Assembly (NCBI GenBank): GCA_964461025.1
Contig: CAYWSE010000007.1
Location: 1,260 to 65,259 of the forward strand
DNA length: 64,000 nt
Source: an uncultured Sphaerobacteraceae bacterium
Lineage (GTDB): Bacteria > Chloroflexota > Chloroflexia > Thermomicrobiales > UBA6265
Direction: 5' to 3'
Under the pieces are notes generated by a model. That model saw only the letters and a list, made by a program, of their open reading frames with translations, ran no database searches and was not told the origin of the DNA. This document shows, piece by piece, positions 1 through 9,021 of this stretch. Within the stretch, counting starts at the first letter, position 1; every line of letters begins with the position of its first letter. A program made the position numbers and the translations under genes.

Positions 1-1172
1 ATCGCATGCGTCGGTTCTGGGCCGGGGATGATTCCCTCCGACCGGGCAAAAGTGATCGCCGCTTCGAATGCAGCCCGTTGCTTTACCGCGCGGGCCTCGA
101 GTCCACCAAGCTCGTACAGGTGACTGATGAGCGGCGCCATACCGTGATACCGCAAACCTCCCGCGTGAATCCCCGCCGGCACGAAGGTATGTCCAAGCGT
201 GTGCATCTTGACCAGTGGCGTCATGCCAATCGTGTCGCCGAAGTCGTATGCGTAGGTGCCGCGCGTGAGCGACGGGCACGCCGCCGGTTCGGCGGCGATG
301 ATGCGTGTCGAACCGCCGTCGAGCTTCGCTTTCATGAACGGCAGCACCAGACCGGCAAAGTTCGAGCCGCCCCCTGCGCACCCCACGATCACATCCGGCG
401 CGACATCCGCCATCTCCAGTTGCTTCTGCGCTTCCAGGCCGATGACGGTCTGGTGCATCAGCACATGGTTCAACACCGAACCGAGCGAATACTTGGTGCC
501 GGGCGTCGTCGCCGCATCTTCGACCGCCTCAGAAATGGCGATTCCCAATGAACCGGTCGAGTCGGGTGATTGCTCCAGAATCGCTCGTCCCGCGTTCGTG
601 TCAGGGCTGGGGCTGGCCACGCATTCAGCGCCCCACGTCTGCATCATGATGCGCCGGTAGGGTTTCTGGTCGTAGCTGATGCGAACCATGTAGACCTTCA
701 GATCGAGCCCAAACGTCGCGCAGGCCATCGCCAGCGAGCTGCCCCATTGCCCGGCTCCCGTTTCGGTCGACAACCGGGTCACGCCTTCCTGCTTGTTGTA
801 GTACGCCTGCGGAACGGCGGTGTTCGGTTTGTGACTGCCGGACGGCGAAACGCCCTCGTACTTGTACAGAATCTTGATGTTGGCGGGGAGATCGAGCGCT
901 CGCTCCAGCGCATGCGCCCGGTAGAGGGGCGTCGGTCGCCAGAGACGGTAGATGTCGCGCACAGCCTCCGGAATCTCGACTTCCCGCTCCTGGCTGACCT
1001 CCTGCATGATGATCGCCATCGGAAAGAGCGGAGCGAGATCGTCGGGACCGACCGGTTGGTGCGTACCCGGATGCAGCACCGGAGGCAACGGCGACGGCAG
1101 GTCGGGCTGGATGTTGTACCAGGCTTTGGGAAGATCGTCTTCGGTCAGGACAAACTTGGTTTGCTCGCTCAC
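1..1172 (-). CDS. trpB2: TrpB2-type tryptophan synthase beta-like PLP enzyme (COG1350-like); C-terminal end runs off the window
   Basis: Absent from the ORF track because there is no stop in the window. My minus-strand translation from GTG 1172 (GAGGG 7 nt upstream; alternative GTG 1178) reads [26 protein letters not shown]...[25 protein letters not shown]...[13 protein letters not shown]...[12 protein letters not shown]...[24 protein letters not shown] and stays open to position 1. It carries the PLP-lysine motif SGSHKPN and the GGGSN phosphate loop. Confidence 0.85.
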
Positions 1173-1190
1173 ACTCACACCCTCTTCTTG

Positions 1191-1212
1191 GCGAAAAGCA
1201 ACACTCGTTGCT
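1191..1212 (-). terminator. Weak stem-loop plus U-run just upstream of the trpB2 RBS (candidate attenuator)
   Basis: The minus-sense RNA reads AGCAAC-GAGU-GUUGCU-UUUCGCC and is followed directly by AAGAAGAGGG and the GTG start. The stem is only 6 bp with 4 U. Confidence 0.25.
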
Positions 1213-1668
1213 CGATTGGCATGAGTGAAGCGTACGAAAAAGCTTGCCGCTGTGCAGCATTGTGTCAGGTGTCACCGGCTGACTGGCGCCTCGCCGATCA
1301 GGCCTGAGCCGCCATACGCGACGTAACGCACTGGTCAGACCCCGTTCGGACGCGATTCTTTCTCCGCGGCCAATCACACCAGGAAGTGATCCAGGTGTGG
1401 CGTTTCAGTGACCTTTTGACACGCGTTGTCAGCCCGGCGGAGATGTGCAAGAATCAGCCTCAGGTCCCCGCAGGATCGTCACCCTTCGAACGCTCGCGCT
1501 GAATGCAGGCATTTGGCGCTTGGGGTTTCGTGCGCCTTCCCGCATTGGCTGATCAGAGCGTCGCTTGAGCATCAGAGGTGGGAAGTGGGGCAGCAATTGG
1601 ATCGCGGCAGCGAACCATTCGGACCGGCAGTGCTGGCCGGCATCGGACTGGGACGACACAGTGGGGCG

Positions 1669-2772
1669 GTGGCGGAAGCCGAAATACCGGCCCCGGTGCA
1701 GAAAAAACTCAGCCTGCCCAGGCATCTGACCCGCCCTCTCGACGTCATCGACTTCGCGCACCCAACCGAGCAGGACCTCGCCCGCGTCTTTTCGTACTAT
1801 CGGGTGAGCTGGATCTACGAACCGACCACATTCCATCTCGAAGTCGACGAAGCGGGCCGACCCACCGAGCAGGTTTGCCCCGATTTCTACCTGCCCGACC
1901 ACGATCTCTACATCGAGCTGACCACGATGCGGCAGGCTCTGGTCACACGCAAGAATCGCAAGATTCGGCGTCTGAAAGAGGCATTTCCGTCGCTCCACAT
2001 CAAGCTCCTCTACCGCAAGGACTACGATCGGCTGATGGGATCGGTGTTTGGCTCGAATGGTCACGCCGTGACGCCATATCCCGGCAAGCCGATCGTCAGC
2101 GAACGGCAGCTGGAGCAACGGATTCGGGTGCTGGCGAGTGACATCGCCGCCGATCAGCAGAGCGAGCGACGGGAACCTCCCTGCTGGGGCCGCATGACGA
2201 GCAATGACTCGCAGCCGAATACACTTCAGCAGTCCCGCTTCTCCGAAGCATTCGATCCATGGGAAGCAGAGCACGATCGGGAAAGCGAGCTTTGTCTGAT
2301 CGGTCTCGGCAACGATTCGATTCCCTTCCTGACGAACCTGGAGTTCGAGCTGAAGCTGACCGGACTGATGCCACCGGTCGACATGATGACGCTGTCGCAG
2401 CCCGGACCATGCCCGGAAGGCGAAAAGGTCTGCATCGCCCGGAAGCCATCCGTGGCGGTCGAGGGACGGGACGTGGTGCTCGTCTCGGGGATCATCAGCA
2501 CCGGTTTGAATGTCGCCTTCGCGGCCGATTGGCTGCTCCGCCAGGGCGCCAGCAGCGTGCGTGTATGCACGCTCTTCGACCGGGCGGAAGCGCGCATTCT
2601 CGATGTGCCGATCTGCTGGTCGGGGTTTCAGGCGCCCCACGAGATCATCGTTGGGTTCGGTATCTCCTACCTGAATCAGTATCATGACCTTCCGGTCATC
2701 GCGCCGCTGAAAGCGCCGGCCCGTCCGAAGAACCGGGCGGTCAGAAGCGAGCAGCTGCACGAGCATCCGTGA
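1669..2772 (+). CDS. Fusion protein: PD-(D/E)xK-like N-terminal domain plus HPRT-like phosphoribosyltransferase domain with substituted catalytic residues
   Basis: ORF track 1426..2772. The first ~80 codons are Arg/Cys-rich and not protein-like, so I start at in-frame GTG 1669; the true start lies somewhere in 1426-1740. The N-terminal part, YEPTTFHLEVDEAGRPTEQVCPDFYLPDHDLYIELTT, resembles an E..PDF..IExK nuclease core with T in place of K. The C-terminal ~210 aa align by eye with E. coli Hpt (LCLIGLGNDSIPFL, DVVLVSGIISTGLNV, CTLFDRAE, GFQAPHEIIVGFGISYLNQYHDLPVIAPL). The catalytic positions differ: VEDIID->VSGIIS, LLDKP->LFDRA, IPDEF->APHEI, GIDY->GISY. Confidence 0.7.
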   Translation: MAEAEIPAPVQKKLSLPRHLTRPLDVIDFAHPTEQDLARVFSYYRVSWIYEPTTFHLEVDEAGRPTEQVCPDFYLPDHDLYIELTTMRQALVTRKNRKIRRLKEAFPSLHIKLLYRKDYDRLMGSVFGSNGHAVTPYPGKPIVSERQLEQRIRVLASDIAADQQSERREPPCWGRMTSNDSQPNTLQQSRFSEAFDPWEAEHDRESELCLIGLGNDSIPFLTNLEFELKLTGLMPPVDMMTLSQPGPCPEGEKVCIARKPSVAVEGRDVVLVSGIISTGLNVAFAADWLLRQGASSVRVCTLFDRAEARILDVPICWSGFQAPHEIIVGFGISYLNQYHDLPVIAPLKAPARPKNRAVRSEQLHEHP

Positions 2773-3461
2773 CGATCGGTCGATTCTCCGGCGGTCGCGA
2801 CACGCCATTCTTCTGGTGGGGAACCGAGCAACGCGCCGGACCACACCCCGATCTGGAAACGCTCATTCAGTCGCAGTTCATCACTGAAGTCGGCGCGACA
2901 CTCCTGCTCGATCTGATCGGGGCAGGACTTTCACTCGTCGTTGTCTCCGAAGCCAGCGGGGCAGGGAAGTCCTCACTCCTGGCGGCGCTGTTGGCCGAAG
3001 TGCAGACCGATCGACAGCGGATCTATCTGCGCGGCAACTACGAGACGTTCGAATTCCTCCGCACGACACCACCGAACGAGACCATGTTGATGGTCAATGA
3101 GATCAGCGCGCACTTGCCCGCCTATCTCTGGGGACCGCCGGTAACCGCGCTCTTCGAAGCGAAACGGACCGGCTATCAGGTGCTCGCGACCGCTCACGCC
3201 GCCAGTGCCGCTGCTCTCCTGCATATGCTGACAACCGCCCCCTTGCGCGTGCCCCAGTCACTGGTCAACATGCCGACGATCGTTGTCGTGCTCGCCTCCC
3301 CAACGAACCCCGATGATAAACGTCGCGGCTTCATGGCACTCACCGGCATCCGACCGGGTGCAACGCCCGAGTCGACCATGATCGAGCCAATCATCGGATT
3401 CGACGGCGAAGTCTCACGCGAAGCAGTCGCTCGAATGCTCGAAATTAATGGTGGAGGGTAG
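2769..3461 (+). CDS. Minimal VirB11/CpaF/PilT-type secretion-NTPase-like P-loop ATPase (230 aa)
   Basis: The GTG start overlaps the upstream stop (GTGA at 2769-2772). Motifs: Walker A SEASGAGKSSLLAALL, Walker-B-like TMLMVNEIS, His-box-like GYQVLATAHAASAAALLHML. Motif order matches the C-terminal ATPase core of type II/IV secretion NTPases, but there is no N-terminal domain. Confidence 0.7.
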   Translation: MTIGRFSGGRDTPFFWWGTEQRAGPHPDLETLIQSQFITEVGATLLLDLIGAGLSLVVVSEASGAGKSSLLAALLAEVQTDRQRIYLRGNYETFEFLRTTPPNETMLMVNEISAHLPAYLWGPPVTALFEAKRTGYQVLATAHAASAAALLHMLTTAPLRVPQSLVNMPTIVVVLASPTNPDDKRRGFMALTGIRPGATPESTMIEPIIGFDGEVSREAVARMLEINGGG

Positions 3462-3542
3462 ATGGTAGATAGTAGATGGTAGATGGCAGATGACCAACCA
3501 TGCTGCGATCTACCATCTACCATTCACTATCTACTATCAACT
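3457..3542. repeat. Inverted arrays of five 7-bp repeats, (GGTAGAT)5 - 16 nt - (ATCTACC)5, an imperfect 35-bp-arm palindrome
   Basis: Left arm 3457-3491: GGTAGAT GGTAGAT AGTAGAT GGTAGAT GGCAGAT. Spacer 3492-3507. Right arm 3508-3542: ATCTACC ATCTACC ATTCACT ATCTACT ATCAACT. The array starts inside the stop codon of the upstream ATPase gene and is AT-rich relative to the window. A further tandem CTACGAC CTACGAC lies at 3552-3565. Confidence 0.9.
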
Positions 3543-3661
3543 GCCCACGGTCTACGACCTACGACTTCCAACCCATCGCGTATCCTTCTTCGGCGGGGCT
3601 TTGCCGCCGCCATGCTTCCCCACAGAGACACGATCGCGGTCTCTCATCCTGAGGACACCAG

Positions 3662-5092
3662 ATGACCACCCCTTCACGCAAGAAAACCTCCGGTTCGACC
3701 GAACGACCCGCCACGCTCGGTGAATTGATTCAAAGTGGATACACCAGCCGCACCGTCCGCGAGGAGATGCGCTCGAACCTGATCGCCGCGCTGCGAAAAG
3801 GCGAGAGTCTCTTTCCGGGCGTCGTCGGCTACGAGCAGACCGTCATTCCAGCGATCGAGAACGCCATCCTCTCGGGCCAGGACATCATCTTTCTCGGCGA
3901 ACGCGGTCAGGCCAAGACCCGGCTGGCCCGCAGTATGACGGCGCTCCTCGATGAGTGGATACCGATTGTCGAAGGCTCGGAGATCAACGACGATCCGCTT
4001 GCGCCAGTCTCCCGATTCGCGCGCGACCTGATTGCCGAGCGCGGCGAAACGACGCCCGTCGACTGGGTGCATCGCGACCGGCGCTACGGGGAGAAACTGG
4101 CGACGCCGGACACGACGATCGCCGACCTGATCGGCGAAGTCGATCCGATCAAGGTCGCCGAGGGCCGCTATCTGAGCGATGAGCTGACGATTTCCTACGG
4201 TCTGATCCCTCGCACCAACCGGGGCGTTTTCACATTGAACGAGCTGCCCGATCTGGCCGAGCGGATTCAGGTCGGGTTGCTCAACATCATGGAAGAGCGT
4301 GACGTGCAAATCCGCGGCTACAAGATTCGGCTGCCGCTCGATGTTCTCGTCGTCGCGTCGGCGAACCCTGAGGACTACACCAACCGGGGCCGGATCATCA
4401 CGCCGCTCAAGGATCGCTACGGGTCACAGATTCGCACCCACTACCCGGAAACAATCGATCTCGAGATGGAGATCATGGACCAGGAGCGGACCCATTTCGG
4501 CACCGAGGGCATCACCGTCGAAACACCCGATTTCATGAAGGAAATCGTGGCTGAGGTCACCCATCAGGCGCGGCGCTCGCAGGATGTCTCGCAGCGATCG
4601 GGCGTGTCGGTGCGAATGAGTGTCGCCAACTACGAAAACCTGATTTCGAACGCGACCCGGCGCGCCATCCGGCTTGGCGAGAAGAGCGCGGCGCCGCGAG
4701 TTTCGGATCTCGACGCCGTCCATGCTTCGACCACGGGCAAGATCGAGTTGGAAACGCTCGGCGAGGTGCGCGAGGAGCAAGTTGTCGACCGGCTTATCGC
4801 CAACGCTATTCTGACGACCTTCAACCGGCACTTTTCGGTGCGCCAGTTCGATCAGCTGATTCAGGCATTCGAGAATGGACTGGCCGTCGAAGCATCTGAT
4901 TTCATGCCCGCCATGGACTACGTCCACCAGCTGAGCCACCTGGAGGGCATCCGCGACGCCGTCGATCACCTCGGCGTTGGCGGGAGTCCGGTCGCGGTGG
5001 CTTCAGCTGTCGAGTTCGTCCTGGAAGGACTCCATCTGAATCGCAAGCTCAACAAGGGTGGAGGCGCCGGTCCGGCCCGGTACTACCGGTAG
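3662..5092 (+). CDS. AAA+ ATPase, ChlI/BchI (Mg-chelatase subunit I)-like family
   Basis: GAGGA RBS before the ATG. Walker A is FLGERGQAKTRLARSM. The segment TNRGVFTLNELPDLAERIQVGLLNIMEERDVQIRGYKIRLPLDVLVVASANPEDY aligns by eye with the ChlI segment ANRGILYVDEVNLL...VLVGSGNPEEG. Walker B is LNE rather than VDE. Confidence 0.8.
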   Translation: MTTPSRKKTSGSTERPATLGELIQSGYTSRTVREEMRSNLIAALRKGESLFPGVVGYEQTVIPAIENAILSGQDIIFLGERGQAKTRLARSMTALLDEWIPIVEGSEINDDPLAPVSRFARDLIAERGETTPVDWVHRDRRYGEKLATPDTTIADLIGEVDPIKVAEGRYLSDELTISYGLIPRTNRGVFTLNELPDLAERIQVGLLNIMEERDVQIRGYKIRLPLDVLVVASANPEDYTNRGRIITPLKDRYGSQIRTHYPETIDLEMEIMDQERTHFGTEGITVETPDFMKEIVAEVTHQARRSQDVSQRSGVSVRMSVANYENLISNATRRAIRLGEKSAAPRVSDLDAVHASTTGKIELETLGEVREEQVVDRLIANAILTTFNRHFSVRQFDQLIQAFENGLAVEASDFMPAMDYVHQLSHLEGIRDAVDHLGVGGSPVAVASAVEFVLEGLHLNRKLNKGGGAGPARYYR

Positions 5093-5128
5093 TCCCAACA
5101 AGCGCCTCCGCCGTCAGGAAACCACGTC

Positions 5129-7168
5129 ATGTCCCGATTTGACCGCACTCGCTATACCCGCTGGGACGGCACCCAGCTTCTCAATCCGGTCGATGCGAAC
5201 GATCTGATGAACGCCATGTCGGAGGAATTGATCCGCGACGGCGATCTGATGAACGCATTGCGGAGGCTCTTCTGGGAGGGCGTCGAACGTCCGGACGGCG
5301 AGCGGATGCCCGGTCTGCGCGAGCTGATGAATCGTCTGCGGCAGGAACGTCAGCAGCAGCTCGGTCGCTACGATCTCGGCTCGATTCTCGACGACATCCG
5401 CGAGCAGATCAAAGAGATCGTCGAGACCGAACGAGCGGGAATCCAGCGCCGGTTGGATGAGGCTGGCAGCCGGCAGCAGGCAGAGACCGAGGACTCGGAC
5501 GATGCCCTCGACGAGGACTCGCTACGGCAGATACTCGAATCGATGGCGGCGAAGAAACGCGATCAGCTAGACGCGCTGCCCAGCGATCCAGCCGGGGCGA
5601 TTCGCGGGTTGCAGGAGTACGATTTTCTCGACCCCAATGCCCGGGCGAAGTTCGAGGAACTCGTTGCCCAGCTGCAACAACAGATCATGCAGCAGACCTT
5701 TCAAGGCATGCAGCAAGCGCTCTCCGAAATGACGCCCGAGCAGGTGGCGTCGATGCGCCAGATGATGCAGGACCTGAACGAGATGCTCGAAGCGCAGGCG
5801 CGCGGCGAGACGCCCCAGTTCAACGAGTTCATGCACAAATGGGGGCATTTCTTCGGACCCGATGTGCAAACGCTCGACGACCTGATCGAGCGGATGCGTC
5901 AGCAGAGCGCCGCCATGCAGCAGCTGATGGACAGCATGAGCCTCGATCAGAAGAACGAGTTGCAGTCGCTCATGCAATCGGTGATGCAGGACCCGGGCAT
6001 GCAGCAGGAAATGGCAAGGCTGCAGCAGAACCTCGGACAGATGATGCGACCGGACGACTGGCGCCGCGCCTATGACTTCTCCGGCAGCGAATCGCTGACG
6101 CTGCACGAAGCGATGCGCATGATGGATCGCCTCGACGATCTCGATTCGCTCGAACAGCAGCTGCGAGAAGTACGCGACTGGTCGGATTTCGCCAATCTCG
6201 ATCAGGAGAAGATCGAGGATTTGCTCGGCGAGGAGTACCGCGAGCAGCTCGATCAGCTCGGCCAGATGGCGAAAGTGCTGGAAGAGGCAGGACTGGTGCG
6301 CAAGACGCGGCGAGGCTACGAGCTGACGCCGCAGGGAGTCCGGAAAATTGGCGAAAAAGCGCTGAGCGACATCTTCGCCCAGTTGAGCCGCGACCGCATC
6401 GGCCAGCATGAAATCAGCCGCTCAGGCGGCGCCGGTGAGCGGATCGATGTCTCCAAGCCCTACGAGTTCGGCGATCCATTCCTGCTCGATCTCGAAGCGA
6501 CGGTGATGAACGCCGTGCAACGGGAAGGAGCAGGGGCGCCGGTCAAGCTCCTGCCGGGCGACTTCGAGGTCTACCGCACCGAGCACGTGACCCGCTCTTC
6601 GACCGTCCTGATGATCGACATGAGCCGCTCGATGTTCTATTCGGACAGCTTCACCGCGGCCAAACGGATCGCGCTGGCTCTCGACTCCCTGATTCGCAGC
6701 AAGTACCCGCGCGATTCACTCGACATCATCGGTTTTTCATACATGGCCGAAGTGCTCAAACCCGCAGATCTGCCGACGCTGACATGGAACGAGTTCCAGT
6801 ACGGAACGAACATGCAGCACGGTTTCCAGATGGCGCGTGAGCTGCTGGGTCGCCAGAAAGGGACGAACCGCCAGATCATCATGATCACCGATGGCGAACC
6901 GACCGCTCACATCGAGAACGGCGAATTCTTCTTTCACTGGCCGCCGATGCCGCAAACGTTTCAGGAGACGTTGCGCGAAGTGATCCGCTGCACGCGCGAC
7001 GGCATCAAGATCAACACTTTCATGCTGGAACGGTCGCCCTATATGATCCAGTTCGTCAACGACCTGATGCGGATCAACCATGGTCGCGTCTTCATGGCCC
7101 AACCCGACCAGCTCGGTGAATACATCCTCGTCGACTACGTGGCGAACAAGCGAAAGCTCGTCAATTGA
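5129..7168 (+). CDS. Large VWA (von Willebrand factor A) domain protein with a Met/Gln-rich coiled-coil middle
   Basis: C-terminal MIDAS-type VWA domain: VLMIDMSRSMFYSDSF...IIGFSYMA...IIMITDGEPTAH. The middle ~200 aa is rich in Q/M/E/L (QQQIMQQTFQGMQQALSEM...MQQLMDSMSLDQKNELQSLMQSVMQDPGMQQEMARLQQNLGQMM). It starts 37 nt downstream of the AAA+ gene. Confidence 0.85.
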   Translation: MSRFDRTRYTRWDGTQLLNPVDANDLMNAMSEELIRDGDLMNALRRLFWEGVERPDGERMPGLRELMNRLRQERQQQLGRYDLGSILDDIREQIKEIVETERAGIQRRLDEAGSRQQAETEDSDDALDEDSLRQILESMAAKKRDQLDALPSDPAGAIRGLQEYDFLDPNARAKFEELVAQLQQQIMQQTFQGMQQALSEMTPEQVASMRQMMQDLNEMLEAQARGETPQFNEFMHKWGHFFGPDVQTLDDLIERMRQQSAAMQQLMDSMSLDQKNELQSLMQSVMQDPGMQQEMARLQQNLGQMMRPDDWRRAYDFSGSESLTLHEAMRMMDRLDDLDSLEQQLREVRDWSDFANLDQEKIEDLLGEEYREQLDQLGQMAKVLEEAGLVRKTRRGYELTPQGVRKIGEKALSDIFAQLSRDRIGQHEISRSGGAGERIDVSKPYEFGDPFLLDLEATVMNAVQREGAGAPVKLLPGDFEVYRTEHVTRSSTVLMIDMSRSMFYSDSFTAAKRIALALDSLIRSKYPRDSLDIIGFSYMAEVLKPADLPTLTWNEFQYGTNMQHGFQMARELLGRQKGTNRQIIMITDGEPTAHIENGEFFFHWPPMPQTFQETLREVIRCTRDGIKINTFMLERSPYMIQFVNDLMRINHGRVFMAQPDQLGEYILVDYVANKRKLVN

Positions 7169-8072
7169 CCTGCCTGGCGCTGTTGTGCAAGCGACGCGAT
7201 GGCCACCGTGCCGGCGCCACCAACACGACCAGCCCGACGAAGAGAAGCGCCGCGCCCATCCACTGAAGGGGAGCCAGCTTCTCGTCCAGCCATGCAACGC
7301 CAAGGAGGGTGGCCGTCAGCGGCTCCATCAACGTGAGCGTTGCTGCCGTGGCGACTGGCACCAGCGTCAACCCGAGCCCGAAGAAGAAGTAGGGAAGCGC
7401 ATTCGTCCCCAGCCCGAGATAGAGCGCCACGGCCGCGCCTCGCGGTTCGAGAATCCACTCCCAGTCTCCTGCGAAAAAGAGGGGAAGGAGGATCAGCGCT
7501 GCGCCAGTGAACACCGCAGCCGTGACATCGACCGCGTCATGACCGAGACCGATCATCCGTTTGCTTGCCGTGACATACACCGCGTAGCCCGCGCCGCCCA
7601 GCACACCAAGCAGCAGGCCAGCCGGATTGCCTTCGACCGAATTCGACGTGCCGAGCACCATGAGCACCGCTCCGGCGATTGCCAGCAACGTCGCGATGAC
7701 CCAAATCCGGCCGGGGTGCTCGTGCAGGAACCTCGCTCCAAGTAATCCGGTGAACACGGGAGCCACGCCAATTGTCAGAACCGTGCTGACCGCGACTCCG
7801 GCATGCTCGATCGCGGTGAAGAACGCGAGCTGCCCGCCTGCCACGCCCATCGCACCGATAGCGATCAGCAACCATGGCGTGGAAAGGTGGCGTGGACCAT
7901 GGTTTCGGACGAGCGCGACGAACAGAAGTCCCAGCGCACCAAGAATCACCCGCACCGAGCCAATCGACAACGATGTTGCGGAATCGGGGGCGTACGTGCT
8001 AGCTGTGCCCGACGTTCCCCAGCAGATCGTGGCGAACAGCACCAGCGCAACTCCACGACCCATCCGTTGCAT
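7161..8072 (-). CDS. EamA/DMT-family transporter
   Basis: 303-aa polytopic membrane protein with two EamA-like halves (ATICWGTSGTAS..., LGVLGGAGYAVYVTASKR...). It converges on the VWA gene with an 8-nt overlap. Confidence 0.8.
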   Translation of the reverse strand: MQRMGRGVALVLFATICWGTSGTASTYAPDSATSLSIGSVRVILGALGLLFVALVRNHGPRHLSTPWLLIAIGAMGVAGGQLAFFTAIEHAGVAVSTVLTIGVAPVFTGLLGARFLHEHPGRIWVIATLLAIAGAVLMVLGTSNSVEGNPAGLLLGVLGGAGYAVYVTASKRMIGLGHDAVDVTAAVFTGAALILLPLFFAGDWEWILEPRGAAVALYLGLGTNALPYFFFGLGLTLVPVATAATLTLMEPLTATLLGVAWLDEKLAPLQWMGAALLFVGLVVLVAPARWPSRRLHNSARQVN

Positions 8073-8151
8073 TCCTCGGTCGTGGGAGAGCGCCCAGACA
8101 TAGCGAAATCAGATGGCGAATCCTACATCGCCATGCGGTCTGTCGCTGAAT

Positions 8152-9021
8152 CTAGTGGTGGTCATCCTGGTTGCGCCAGGACTGGTCTTCGAAGCTCCAG
8201 ATCTCGTCGGACGGCACCAGCACCGGCAGCCGTTCGACGTGAGTCGGACGGACCGAACTCGCTGACCGTGCGACGCGCATTTCACCACCGGCCAGTGTGC
8301 TGATTGTCAGAATCGTGCATTCATGCGGCGGTTCCACCAATGCAGCGAACGAGAGGTGCAGCACCGATTCGGTCACGGTTGTCGCGCGGACATGCAGGTG
8401 CCCGTGGAGAACGACTGCCGGTTCGATGAGCGTCTGCAGCTCGGATGTTCGCACGTCCAGATCGGTGAGGTCGCCGGCGTGTTTCATCCCAGCCAACTGC
8501 AGCGTTTCTGCGAGTGGCAGCAGTGGGAAGTGAGACATAATGATGTTCACAGTACCTTCACGTGTCGCGATGGGCGCACCGAGCGAACGAAGTTCATTCG
8601 TCTCAGCATCGCGCTCGACGCCCAGCAACTGGACGGATCTGCCATTGAGTGCAGTGAGCAGTGGCGGTGTGCAAGTCGCGGCATCGGCAAAGAAATGCTG
8701 AAACTCCGACGGTGAGCCAGGCTCGGCGGTGACGTCGTGATTGCCCGACAACAGAATGATCGGCTTTCCACTTGAACGCAGTTTCTGACGGACACGGCCC
8801 AGCGATTCTCGGTCGGCGAAATGCGAGAGGTCACCGAGCACGGCGATGGCATCGACGTCGTGCTCGGCGAATCGTCGCAGCGCTGCGTCGAGCAGGTCGA
8901 GTCCGAGATCGAAGCGCAATTCGTTGTGCCAGACCGCGTTCGGTTCGCCCGGCGGCGTGCAGTGAATCTCGGAAACGACGCCAATGATCAACTGTGAGGA
9001 TTCAGGTGCATTTGCAGTCAC
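8152..9021 (-). CDS. Calcineurin-like metallophosphoesterase
   Basis: Motifs VVSEIH, IAVLGDLSHF, ILLSGNHDV and VLHGHLH in the canonical order. Confidence 0.75.
   Translation of the reverse strand: MTANAPESSQLIIGVVSEIHCTPPGEPNAVWHNELRFDLGLDLLDAALRRFAEHDVDAIAVLGDLSHFADRESLGRVRQKLRSSGKPIILLSGNHDVTAEPGSPSEFQHFFADAATCTPPLLTALNGRSVQLLGVERDAETNELRSLGAPIATREGTVNIIMSHFPLLPLAETLQLAGMKHAGDLTDLDVRTSELQTLIEPAVVLHGHLHVRATTVTESVLHLSFAALVEPPHECTILTISTLAGGEMRVARSASSVRPTHVERLPVLVPSDEIWSFEDQSWRNQDDHH

Follow-up and report, generated by a model that had tools for sequence, protein, structure and literature searches.

Hypoxanthine phosphoribosyltransferase (HPRT) is a central enzyme of purine salvage and a major target of (p)ppGpp. 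The phosphoribosyltransferase (PRT) fold serves regulators as well. PyrR is both a uracil phosphoribosyltransferase and an RNA-binding attenuator, and PurR of B. subtilis is a PRT-like sensor of phosphoribosyl pyrophosphate (PRPP) equipped with a DNA-binding domain. In B. subtilis the TilS-HprT complex binds DNA, and HprT acts in it together with TilS, whose gene lies directly before hprT and overlaps it (PMC8152036). T7 endonuclease I (gp3; PF05367) is the other term of comparison. Cleavage by this phage enzyme is reduced at least 100-fold by mutating P54, D55, E65, K67 or E20, and loss of the C-terminal tail lowers its affinity for junctions (PMC11833611). The locus described here resides in a stretch of 64,000 nucleotides (nt), hereafter the window, of contig CAYWSE010000007.1 from an uncultured Sphaerobacteraceae bacterium of the Thermomicrobiales (Chloroflexota). 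It hosts a gene in which a domain predicted to be related to T7 endonuclease I (N-domain) is fused to a degenerate HPRT domain. The parts of the fusion gene, with residue numbers referring to the protein of 395 amino acids (aa) and thus lower by 53 than those of the initial annotation of this DNA, are the following:

1585 to 2772, plus strand: fusion gene, 395 aa, with an endonuclease-I-like domain between a disordered N-terminal tail and a degenerate HPRT domain
1747 to 2049, plus strand: endonuclease-I-like PD-(D/E)xK domain, aa 55-155, with E62, D100 and E111 kept and T113 at the position of T7 K67
2077 to 2718, plus strand: HPRT-fold domain, aa 165-378, with the changes E133S, D134G, D137S, K165R, F186I and D193S (human HGPRT numbering)
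2161 to 2289, plus strand: disordered, lineage-variable insertion of about 40 aa, aa 193-235, between the first helix and the first strand of the HPRT fold

The N-terminal region had been initially described as a PD-(D/E)xK-like layout, including a nuclease-like motif (YEP...CPDFYLPDHDLYIELTT) which is indeed present in the protein, with Thr where the catalytic Lys is expected. Profile, family and viral-structure comparisons all point in the same direction, namely to phage endonuclease I and resolvases. A profile built from 26 N-domains matched T7 endonuclease I in the PDB over about 90 residues (3cae, E=1.3e-4; also 2pfj and 1m0d, which together are all the different sequences of the enzyme in that database). 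PHROG families of Holliday-junction resolvases and endonucleases match 26/26 N-domains, with a best value of 2.7e-8; Pfam PF05367 (Phage_endo_I) matches 9/26, with a best value of 1.8e-4 that lies below the 29.1-bit gathering score. Foldseek searches against viral structures retrieved Endonuclease I (E=1.2e-5), together with DUF559, TnsA and resolvases; the top 50 PDB matches of the whole fusion are HPRTs only. In the AlphaFold2 model of the 395-aa protein (mean pLDDT 79.6, pTM 0.77) the N-domain is folded as alpha-beta-beta-beta-beta-alpha-beta-alpha, with block-mean pLDDT values mostly around 90, and includes the alpha-beta-beta-beta-alpha-beta core of PD-(D/E)xK nucleases. The profile alignment, which spans T7 residues ~15-102, sets the following equivalences:

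T7 endonuclease I E20: N-domain E62, the invariant Glu of FAHPxE
T7 endonuclease I D55: N-domain D100, in TPDF
T7 endonuclease I E65: N-domain E111
T7 endonuclease I K67: N-domain T113

The catalytic set E...D...E-x-K is therefore present except for Lys, replaced by Thr113. The replacement is a family trait. Thr was found at this position in 292/292 motif-bearing family sequences, both Glu residues and the Asp are invariant throughout the 26-domain alignment, and the helix-1 motif of FAHPxE type with the first Glu was found in 296 sequences. N-domains and T7 endonuclease I additionally share the TPDF(L/Y)LP and (V/I)E strands, and RKK...(I/L)RE.(H/Y)PE...I(R/K)I after the catalytic strand, where a basic conserved helix, LVTRKNRKIRRL, is found in the N-domain. 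By sequence and model alike, the N-domain is best viewed as a distant cellular relative of phage T7 endonuclease I with a PD-(D/E)xK fold. It differs from the T7 enzyme, besides the invariant Thr, in being encoded by cellular genes rather than phage-borne, and in being tied to HPRT, either fused or, as detailed below, adjacent. An origin from phages by close similarity was discarded, as 50,697 phage records searched by tblastn with the N-domain yielded nothing at E <= 0.01. Searches with the fusion and other family members found no Pfam or NCBIfam model specific for the N-domain; hence these proteins are annotated as hypothetical, or mis-annotated as HPRT.

The family is large. Searching 1.84 billion representatives with one sequence retrieved 1,129 N-domain representatives at 50% identity; with the profile, the yield was at least 7,999 clusters defined at 90% identity, and a good part of these are stand-alone proteins of 110-220 aa. 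When each species was represented by a single genome, at least 592 genomes were found to carry the fusion. The 150 best representatives break down by architecture as follows:

N-domain alone, including some fragments: 92
N-domain-PRT: 40
Cytidylate_kin2-N-domain: 16
GAF-N-domain-PRT: 2

The cytidylate-kinase-like (PF13189) domain preceding the N-domain in P0169, P0205 and P0180 carries GSGG where P-loop kinases have GK[ST], and judging from this motif may bind nucleotides without catalysis. A single example was found of PC4, a single-stranded-DNA-binding domain, placed before the N-domain (P0462, 221 aa). It supports a DNA-directed role, to the extent that one 1.7-kb contig can.

Flanking genes were looked up on long contigs for seven stand-alone N-domain genes and for an eighth with an N-terminal kinase-like domain. 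In 7/8 cases (six stand-alone genes and the kinase-like one) the next gene encodes a PRT of about 160-195 aa. The two genes mostly overlap or are less than 20 nt apart; the distance is about 450 nt in loci L144 and L145, a small ORF (open reading frame) being called in between in L145. All seven adjacent PRT genes have the canonical VEDI[IV]DTG loop, and most also LLDKxxRR and PDxF..GYGLDY. The one exception is flanked by genes for a nucleoside phosphorylase of the PNP family (PF01048), FTHFS, FolD and ThyX. The labels found among the sources of the seven pairs are Coriobacteriia, Actinobacteria, Armatimonadota and Bacteroidota, and N-domains in general come also from sequences labelled as Anaerolineae, Acidobacteria and Firmicutes; these are labels of metagenome bins, to be taken cautiously. 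The conserved partnership, old and widespread, is, on the basis of these sequences, that of N-domain and HPRT, fused in Chloroflexota and Dormibacterota, and encoded by adjacent genes in other phyla. This split-versus-fused pattern implies that the N-domain protein and HPRT very probably work together. The surroundings are in keeping with nucleotide metabolism in some loci: an N-domain-hpt pair heads a nucleoside ABC-transporter (Bmp) operon in L149, and a fusion directly follows nrdR-nrdJ in L060. No published description of the N-domain-HPRT architecture was found in the searchable literature.

Other features of these neighbourhoods were recorded. In L148 (6001-7221) a cytidylate-kinase-like-N-domain gene is followed by hpt, and ndk, an adenosine-kinase-like gene and FTHFS reside nearby. 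The stand-alone N-domain-hpt pair is found just after a conserved RsiG-FHA-MerR (Rv1828_C) run in the Coriobacteriia/Actinobacteria-like loci L142, L143, L151 and L152; in these four loci a TrkA-type channel gene and apt are often found downstream of the pair, and in L142 and L143 only, gcvH and lplA are located further upstream.

The HPRT half of the window protein has plainly the type I PRT fold of the HPRT subtype. Solved HPRTs were matched by phmmer (E ~1e-20), and by Foldseek against the PDB with E 1e-17 and target-normalised TM-scores of 0.73-0.94. Fold, 5'-phosphate loop and overall order of the motifs are those of bacterial HPRT (Hpt/HprT; TIGR01203). Yet the score to TIGR01203 (HGPRTase) is 69.7 bits, less than half the cut-off of 150, and the match to PF00156 (Pribosyltran) is borderline (27.1 bits, threshold 26.3). 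Compared to bacterial HPRT, the protein has other residues in place of the catalytic acid pair, the Asp acting as general base, the Phe that stacks on the base and the Asp that binds Mg, and it carries two additional parts, the 40-aa insertion and the N-terminal nuclease-like domain. At the catalytic positions E133-D134, D137, K165, F186 and D193 the window protein has S, G, S, R, I and S. Alignment to solved HPRTs confirmed each of the changes initially listed (VEDIID to VSGIIS, DKP to DRA, IPDEF to APHEI, GIDY to GISY), as well as the ~40-aa insertion. Most relatives have a gap at residues 193-235, and pLDDT is <50 for residues 205-223. A precedent proposed initially, that of ComF/ComFC proteins, finds a TIGR00201 match of 20.9 bits in the fusion (cut-off 233.55), confined to 40 residues of the PRPP loop.

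The changes are not all equally widespread. Among 161 N-domain-PRT proteins, D137 is replaced by Ser in 139 and D134 is kept in 131, while the S-G dipeptide found in the window in place of the acidic pair occurs in 2 only and is rare even within the clade. The [ST]G of the 5'-phosphate loop is kept in 161/161. Many residues of the HPRT half are invariant in the clade (S305, G307, W316, C328, D332, R333, A336, R337, G347, F348, A350, P351, G357 and G359), and in the model pLDDT is >90 over most of the domain.

The state of the HPRT half is strongly lineage-dependent. Fusions from 83 fetched loci, plus that of the window, were sorted by the residues found at the columns E133, D134, D137, K165, F186 and D193:

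Dehalococcoidia type, n=17: EDD[KR]FD, fully canonical; median pairwise identity 72% for the N-domain, 64% for the HPRT half
Dormibacterota / "CF" Chloroflexi type, n=32: EDNRYD, near-canonical; median pairwise identity (Dormibacterota type) 90% for the N-domain, 85% for the HPRT half
Thermomicrobiales type, n=35: D137 changed to S (to N in three), other catalytic residues variably lost; median pairwise identity 68% for the N-domain, 39% for the HPRT half

Patterns such as EDSRLD, ADSRVS and QESRAS are found in Thermomicrobiales next to the SGSRIS of the window. Identity to an actinobacterial hpt is 48-58% for canonical and near-canonical halves, and mostly 27-36%, over comparable lengths, for those of Thermomicrobiales. 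The gap between 39% and 68% identity, taken with the losses at catalytic columns, leads to the conclusion that catalytic constraint on the HPRT half has been lost in Thermomicrobiales, which appear from these comparisons to be the only lineage with a decayed, fast-evolving HPRT half. Loss of the general-base Asp was probably followed by separate losses of the other catalytic residues in different sub-lineages. Even so, each of the 35 Thermomicrobiales-type sequences has an intact HPRT half, as do 120 clusters (90% identity) among the matches listed; both alignment and model suggest a conserved pseudoenzyme-like domain, rather than a pseudogene or a dying gene. It had been foreseen that canonical residues in orthologs would mark the window gene as an hpt decayed in one lineage. 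This is largely what was observed, since residues are canonical in Dehalococcoidia and in the separate hpt genes, and nearly so in the Dormibacterota type (D137N); the HPRT half of the window therefore looks like a case of lineage-specific decay. Dormibacterota/CF Chloroflexi fusions (L029-L083; e.g. L058, ~8001-8900) share D137N, K165R and F186Y in an otherwise canonical HPRT half, and this EDNRYD pattern may denote altered base specificity, not loss of function.

The fusion gene is followed in the window, on the same strand, by three genes and a hairpin:

2769 to 3461, plus strand: minimal secretion-superfamily ATPase, 230 aa, with only the C-terminal RecA-like domain and a conserved N-terminal PFFWWG peptide
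3450 to 3542, plus strand: long hairpin directly after the ATPase stop, one arm being made of about five GGTAGAT heptamers in tandem and the other of their reverse complement
3662 to 5092, plus strand: AAA+ ATPase, 476 aa, Mg-chelatase/MoxR-like and Rv0958-like by domain matches
5129 to 7168, plus strand: VWA-domain protein, 679 aa, with a VWA_2 match, Rv0959-like, partner of the AAA+ protein

The small ATPase (ORF2) had been described as the bare core of VirB11/CpaF/PilT-type enzymes, and the description holds. Walker A (GAGKS), a Walker-B-like LMVNEIS and a His box (TAHA) are all present, and residues invariant in 18 relatives include G66, K67, N110, E111, H115, T141, A142 and H143. The N-terminus TIGRFS agrees with the conserved N-terminus of the family. 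The model (pLDDT 87) matches best the archaeal GspE 2oap (2.8e-10), followed by FlaI, CpaF/TadA, PilT and DotB. Matches cover the C-terminal ATPase domain only, with TM-scores of about 0.6 when normalised on the query and 0.3 on the target; at the sequence level too, only the C-terminal part of profiles is matched, and the score to PF00437 is 18.8 bits (threshold 24.9). ORF2 thus shares the RecA-like C-terminal domain, Walker A, the Walker-B Glu and the His box with secretion-superfamily ATPases (GspE, PilB/PilT, FlaI, CpaF/TadA, VirB11, DotB), but at 230 aa it lacks the N-terminal (N2/PAS-like) domain which forms the interface of the canonical hexamer, and differs from them also in being coupled to Rv0958-like AAA+ and Rv0959-like VWA proteins. 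Platform, pilin or secretion genes were not found beside the ATPase either in the window or in annotated related loci.

Whether the ATPase belongs with the fusion was assessed in two sets of loci, fetched through the fusion and, from metagenomes, through the ATPase, counting informative loci only. When the ATPase is the bait, the AAA+ gene comes next in 16/19 loci, at distances of 200-630 nt, and the fusion is upstream in only 12/23. When the fusion is the bait, the ATPase is found downstream in 21/30 Thermomicrobiales loci, at distances ranging from 0 to about 3,300 nt. In the remaining 9/30 the fusion is followed directly by the AAA+ gene (four loci), or neither gene is present (five loci). 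The ATPase is found in 0/30 loci hosting canonical or near-canonical fusions of the Dehalococcoidia/Dormibacterota type. The AAA+ protein is 77-92% identical across ATPase-bearing Thermomicrobiales loci, and the VWA gene co-occurs with it in the fetched loci; the VWA orthologue in L001 carries Mb0984_helical, Rv0959_3rd and VWA_2. In a divergent clade, in which the AAA+ protein is about 63-65% identical, the ATPase-AAA+-VWA genes occur with no fusion within up to 8 kb (L110, L112, L117, L119, L123 and L129), and the ATPase stop overlaps the AAA+ start (L110, 8825-8828; L129, 7455-7462). The three genes span 2769-7168 in the window, 7935-12407 in L110 and 6536-11040 in L129. As judged from gene order, the ATPase would be the first gene of a separate ATPase-AAA+-VWA cluster, not part of the fusion module, and this cluster is probably co-transcribed with the fusion in the window. 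The coupled pair described initially, fusion plus ATPase as a functional unit, is consequently not supported; as to the question raised initially, whether the downstream AAA+/VWA genes join the pair, they go with the ATPase, and linkage to the fusion is not conserved. MSMEG_5512, the Rv0958 orthologue, is among the proteins chosen for DNA-association testing in M. smegmatis (PMC7092591). An MFS_3-type transporter gene (~445-520 aa) lies between fusion and ATPase in L009, L010, L011, L015 and L018, and directly downstream of the fusion also in L003 and L034.

The overlap which inspired the notion of a pair is real. The fusion stop TGA (2770-2772) and the ATPase start GTG (2769-2771) overlap within the GTGA at 2769-2772. 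It is shared only by the closest relatives, as the same 4-nt overlap occurs in L005 and the matches abut at a contig end in L004; in L084 the distance is already about 30 nt. As to the other boundary, ORF1 had been drawn from TTG 1426. The frame is open from 1426 to 2772 on the plus strand, but GTG 1585 is more likely the start, because the database gene call P0001 (395 aa) is identical to the window protein over all 395 aa, relatives align only from about GTG 1585 onward, a GAGGTGG Shine-Dalgarno sequence is located a few bases 5' of GTG 1585, and TTG 1426 falls inside a promoter-like site:

1426 to 1454, plus strand: promoter-like site TTGTCA-17 nt-AAGAAT with an upstream TG, containing TTG 1426

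The site is the sole one found in 1000-7600; shuffled sequence averages 1.1, so that taken alone it is weak evidence. A 471-aa ORF on the opposite strand (1429-2844, minus strand) spans the whole fusion gene. It was rejected as a gene, being a shadow ORF typical of DNA with 61% G+C, and strong homology resides on the plus strand. With hundreds of relatives for the fusion and dozens for the ATPase, the features described for the two proteins are, on sequence grounds, not due to chance.

The hairpin at 3450-3542 folds as RNA at -50.1 kcal/mol (z = -7.65), and is not followed by a T-run. The GGTAGAT repeat was not found elsewhere in the window, nor in 153 fetched loci. The hairpin could be a processing or stabilising stem, a terminator-like element or a small insertion. 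A weak anti-Shine-Dalgarno inverted repeat (1536-1585) is only 70% complementary.

We tentatively propose, rating the model slightly below an even chance, that the fusion combines a module for binding nucleic acids with a ligand sensor derived from HPRT. The endonuclease-I-like domain, probably a dimer like T7 endonuclease I and endowed with an intact acidic metal site and a very basic helix, would probably engage nucleic acid. The HPRT domain would perform catalysis where canonical, and sense a ligand, be it PRPP, IMP/GMP or (p)ppGpp, in the window protein. The status of the purine nucleotides would thereby be coupled to an output at the nucleic-acid level, most likely gene regulation, and in Thermomicrobiales the HPRT half would be reduced to a pure sensor. 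The analogy with PyrR, PurR and TilS-HprT is one of design, a PRT fold acting as ligand sensor being joined to a nucleic-acid-binding function; the N-domain gene precedes hpt much as tilS precedes hprT. Unlike in PyrR or PurR, the nucleic-acid module would be a nuclease fold, rather than a winged helix or a PRT surface. Regulation is favored because the N-domain gene comes first in the operon, because GAF, GSGG kinase-like and PC4 domains sit before the N-domain, and because PRT-fold regulators exist and TilS-HprT binds DNA. Several data weigh against the proposal. The invariant acidic triad points to a working metal site, more to be expected of an enzyme than of a protein that only binds DNA. 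The C-terminal ~45 residues of T7 endonuclease I, including the tail needed for junction affinity, are absent in the N-domain. Upstream regions of 330 nt from 107 N-domain genes were searched for 6-mer palindromes (gaps 0-12) and a shared operator was rejected, as at most 3 loci had one in common, compared to 2 in shuffles, and palindromes were shared only among close relatives. Control by a riboswitch or leader was discarded likewise: Rfam returned none in 1-8000 at E <= 1 except a chance miRNA match on the hairpin, nothing in the whole window reaches the gathering score, and the fold of the 5' leader at 1460-1600 does not surpass those of shuffled sequences (z = +0.89). The organism as a whole may still have HPRT function; no second hpt was found anywhere in the 64 kb of the window, nor, in the fetched loci, at distances of up to ~8 kb from the fusion, which is a statement on these regions and not on whole genomes. 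Finally, the 4-nt overlap in the window and L005 suggests that fusion and ATPase are co-expressed in this sub-lineage, at odds with the separation of the two modules.

The N-domain could rather be an active metal-dependent nuclease or phosphodiesterase, in which another residue, for example the conserved K/R116, Q117, K123 or K126, or Thr113 itself, stands in for Lys, acting in nucleic-acid turnover or repair tied to purine salvage, with the HPRT half as catalytic partner or, in the window, as allosteric one. The strict invariance of the acidic triad and Thr favors such an enzymatic reading: E62, D100 and E111 do not change across phyla and Thr113 never varies, as expected for a functional site and not for a relic. 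The neighbours (hpt, apt, nucleoside transporter, PF01048 phosphorylase, ndk) relate to salvage, and T7 endonuclease I also helps degrade host DNA for nucleotide supply. To our knowledge, however, PD-(D/E)xK enzymes with Thr in place of this Lys are not known. It would be hazardous to have a nuclease made constitutively in the cytoplasm from the first gene of a salvage operon, the GAF and degenerate kinase-like N-terminal domains suit a regulator equally well, and in T7 endonuclease I mutation of K67, or of the acidic residues, costs at least 100-fold in cleavage (PMC11833611). An active nuclease is on balance unlikely, though it deserves to be kept in mind. We regard it as less probable still that the HPRT half is a decaying scaffold or spacer devoid of sensing, with catalysis left to a separate canonical hpt and only the endonuclease-like domain functional. 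Catalytic positions do vary among close relatives (ADSRVS, QESRAS, EDSRLD, SGSRIS), median identity is far below that of the N-domain, and the insertion is variable and disordered; but a mere spacer would hardly have remained intact in 35/35 Thermomicrobiales-type sequences and in the 120 clusters mentioned, nor have preserved so many clade-invariant positions from S305 to G359, a confidently modelled fold and the [ST]G of the 5'-phosphate loop in each of the 161 proteins. That the HPRT-like half may be an active PRT with a changed substrate is very improbable. A Ser just ahead of the TG loop is a common feature of type I PRTases other than HPRT, and one acidic residue of the PRPP motif is still there in most of the clade (D134 in 131/161). 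The window protein, though, has lost both acidic residues, and loss of the Mg-binding Asp and of the base-stacking aromatic residue, variable among close relatives, is unlike a newly fixed specificity. Least probable of all is a single dedicated system for conflict, defence or DNA handling, formed by fusion and minimal ATPase, possibly with AAA+/VWA. The GTGA overlap in the window and L005, the presence of the ATPase downstream of the fusion in 21/30 Thermomicrobiales loci, and the shared orientation of all four genes, together with the lack of terminator-like sites on the plus strand in 1000-7600, would be in its favor. It is contradicted by the six loci with ATPase-AAA+-VWA but no fusion, by fusions lacking the ATPase in 9/30 Thermomicrobiales loci and in all 30 from other lineages, and by the MFS transporter gene interposed in several loci. 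A known defence system was searched for and rejected: PADLOC analysis of the four proteins gave best E values of 0.006 and 0.019, due to a short PD-DExK motif only, and 0.037 for the ATPase, none of them significant, models of retrons with PRTase effectors included. The conflict role imagined initially is also ill-suited to a fusion family that is broadly inherited and has a very conserved domain, unlike patchy defence genes.

What seems to be new here is a conserved family of endonuclease-I-like domains with Thr for Lys, associated with HPRT, the variant of this family found with a pseudo-HPRT in Thermomicrobiales, and the minimal ATPase as an accessory of Rv0958/Rv0959-type genes; the folds of the components were known. 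Our overall proposal, advanced with slightly less than even confidence, is that the Lys-to-Thr N-domain is a dedicated and so far unrecognised partner of HPRT across many phyla, adjacent or fused to it, and preceded at times by GAF, kinase-like or PC4 domains, which works as a purine-sensing regulator or a purine-controlled nuclease; that the HPRT of Thermomicrobiales is a pseudoenzyme sensor; and that the ATPase is a new accessory of the Rv0958/Rv0959 type. A stop/start overlap in one genome did not foretell a conserved functional pair. The family forms an evolutionary series, from separate genes to fusions with an active HPRT, and from these to fusions with a decayed HPRT, which is useful to understand how enzymes turn into sensors. 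If the proposal is true, the Thermomicrobiales proteins would represent a natural experiment in the conversion of HPRT into a pseudoenzyme sensor, and a conserved HPRT partner present in thousands of bacterial lineages would be a missing piece of the biology of purine salvage, concerning either its regulation or the turnover of nucleic acids.

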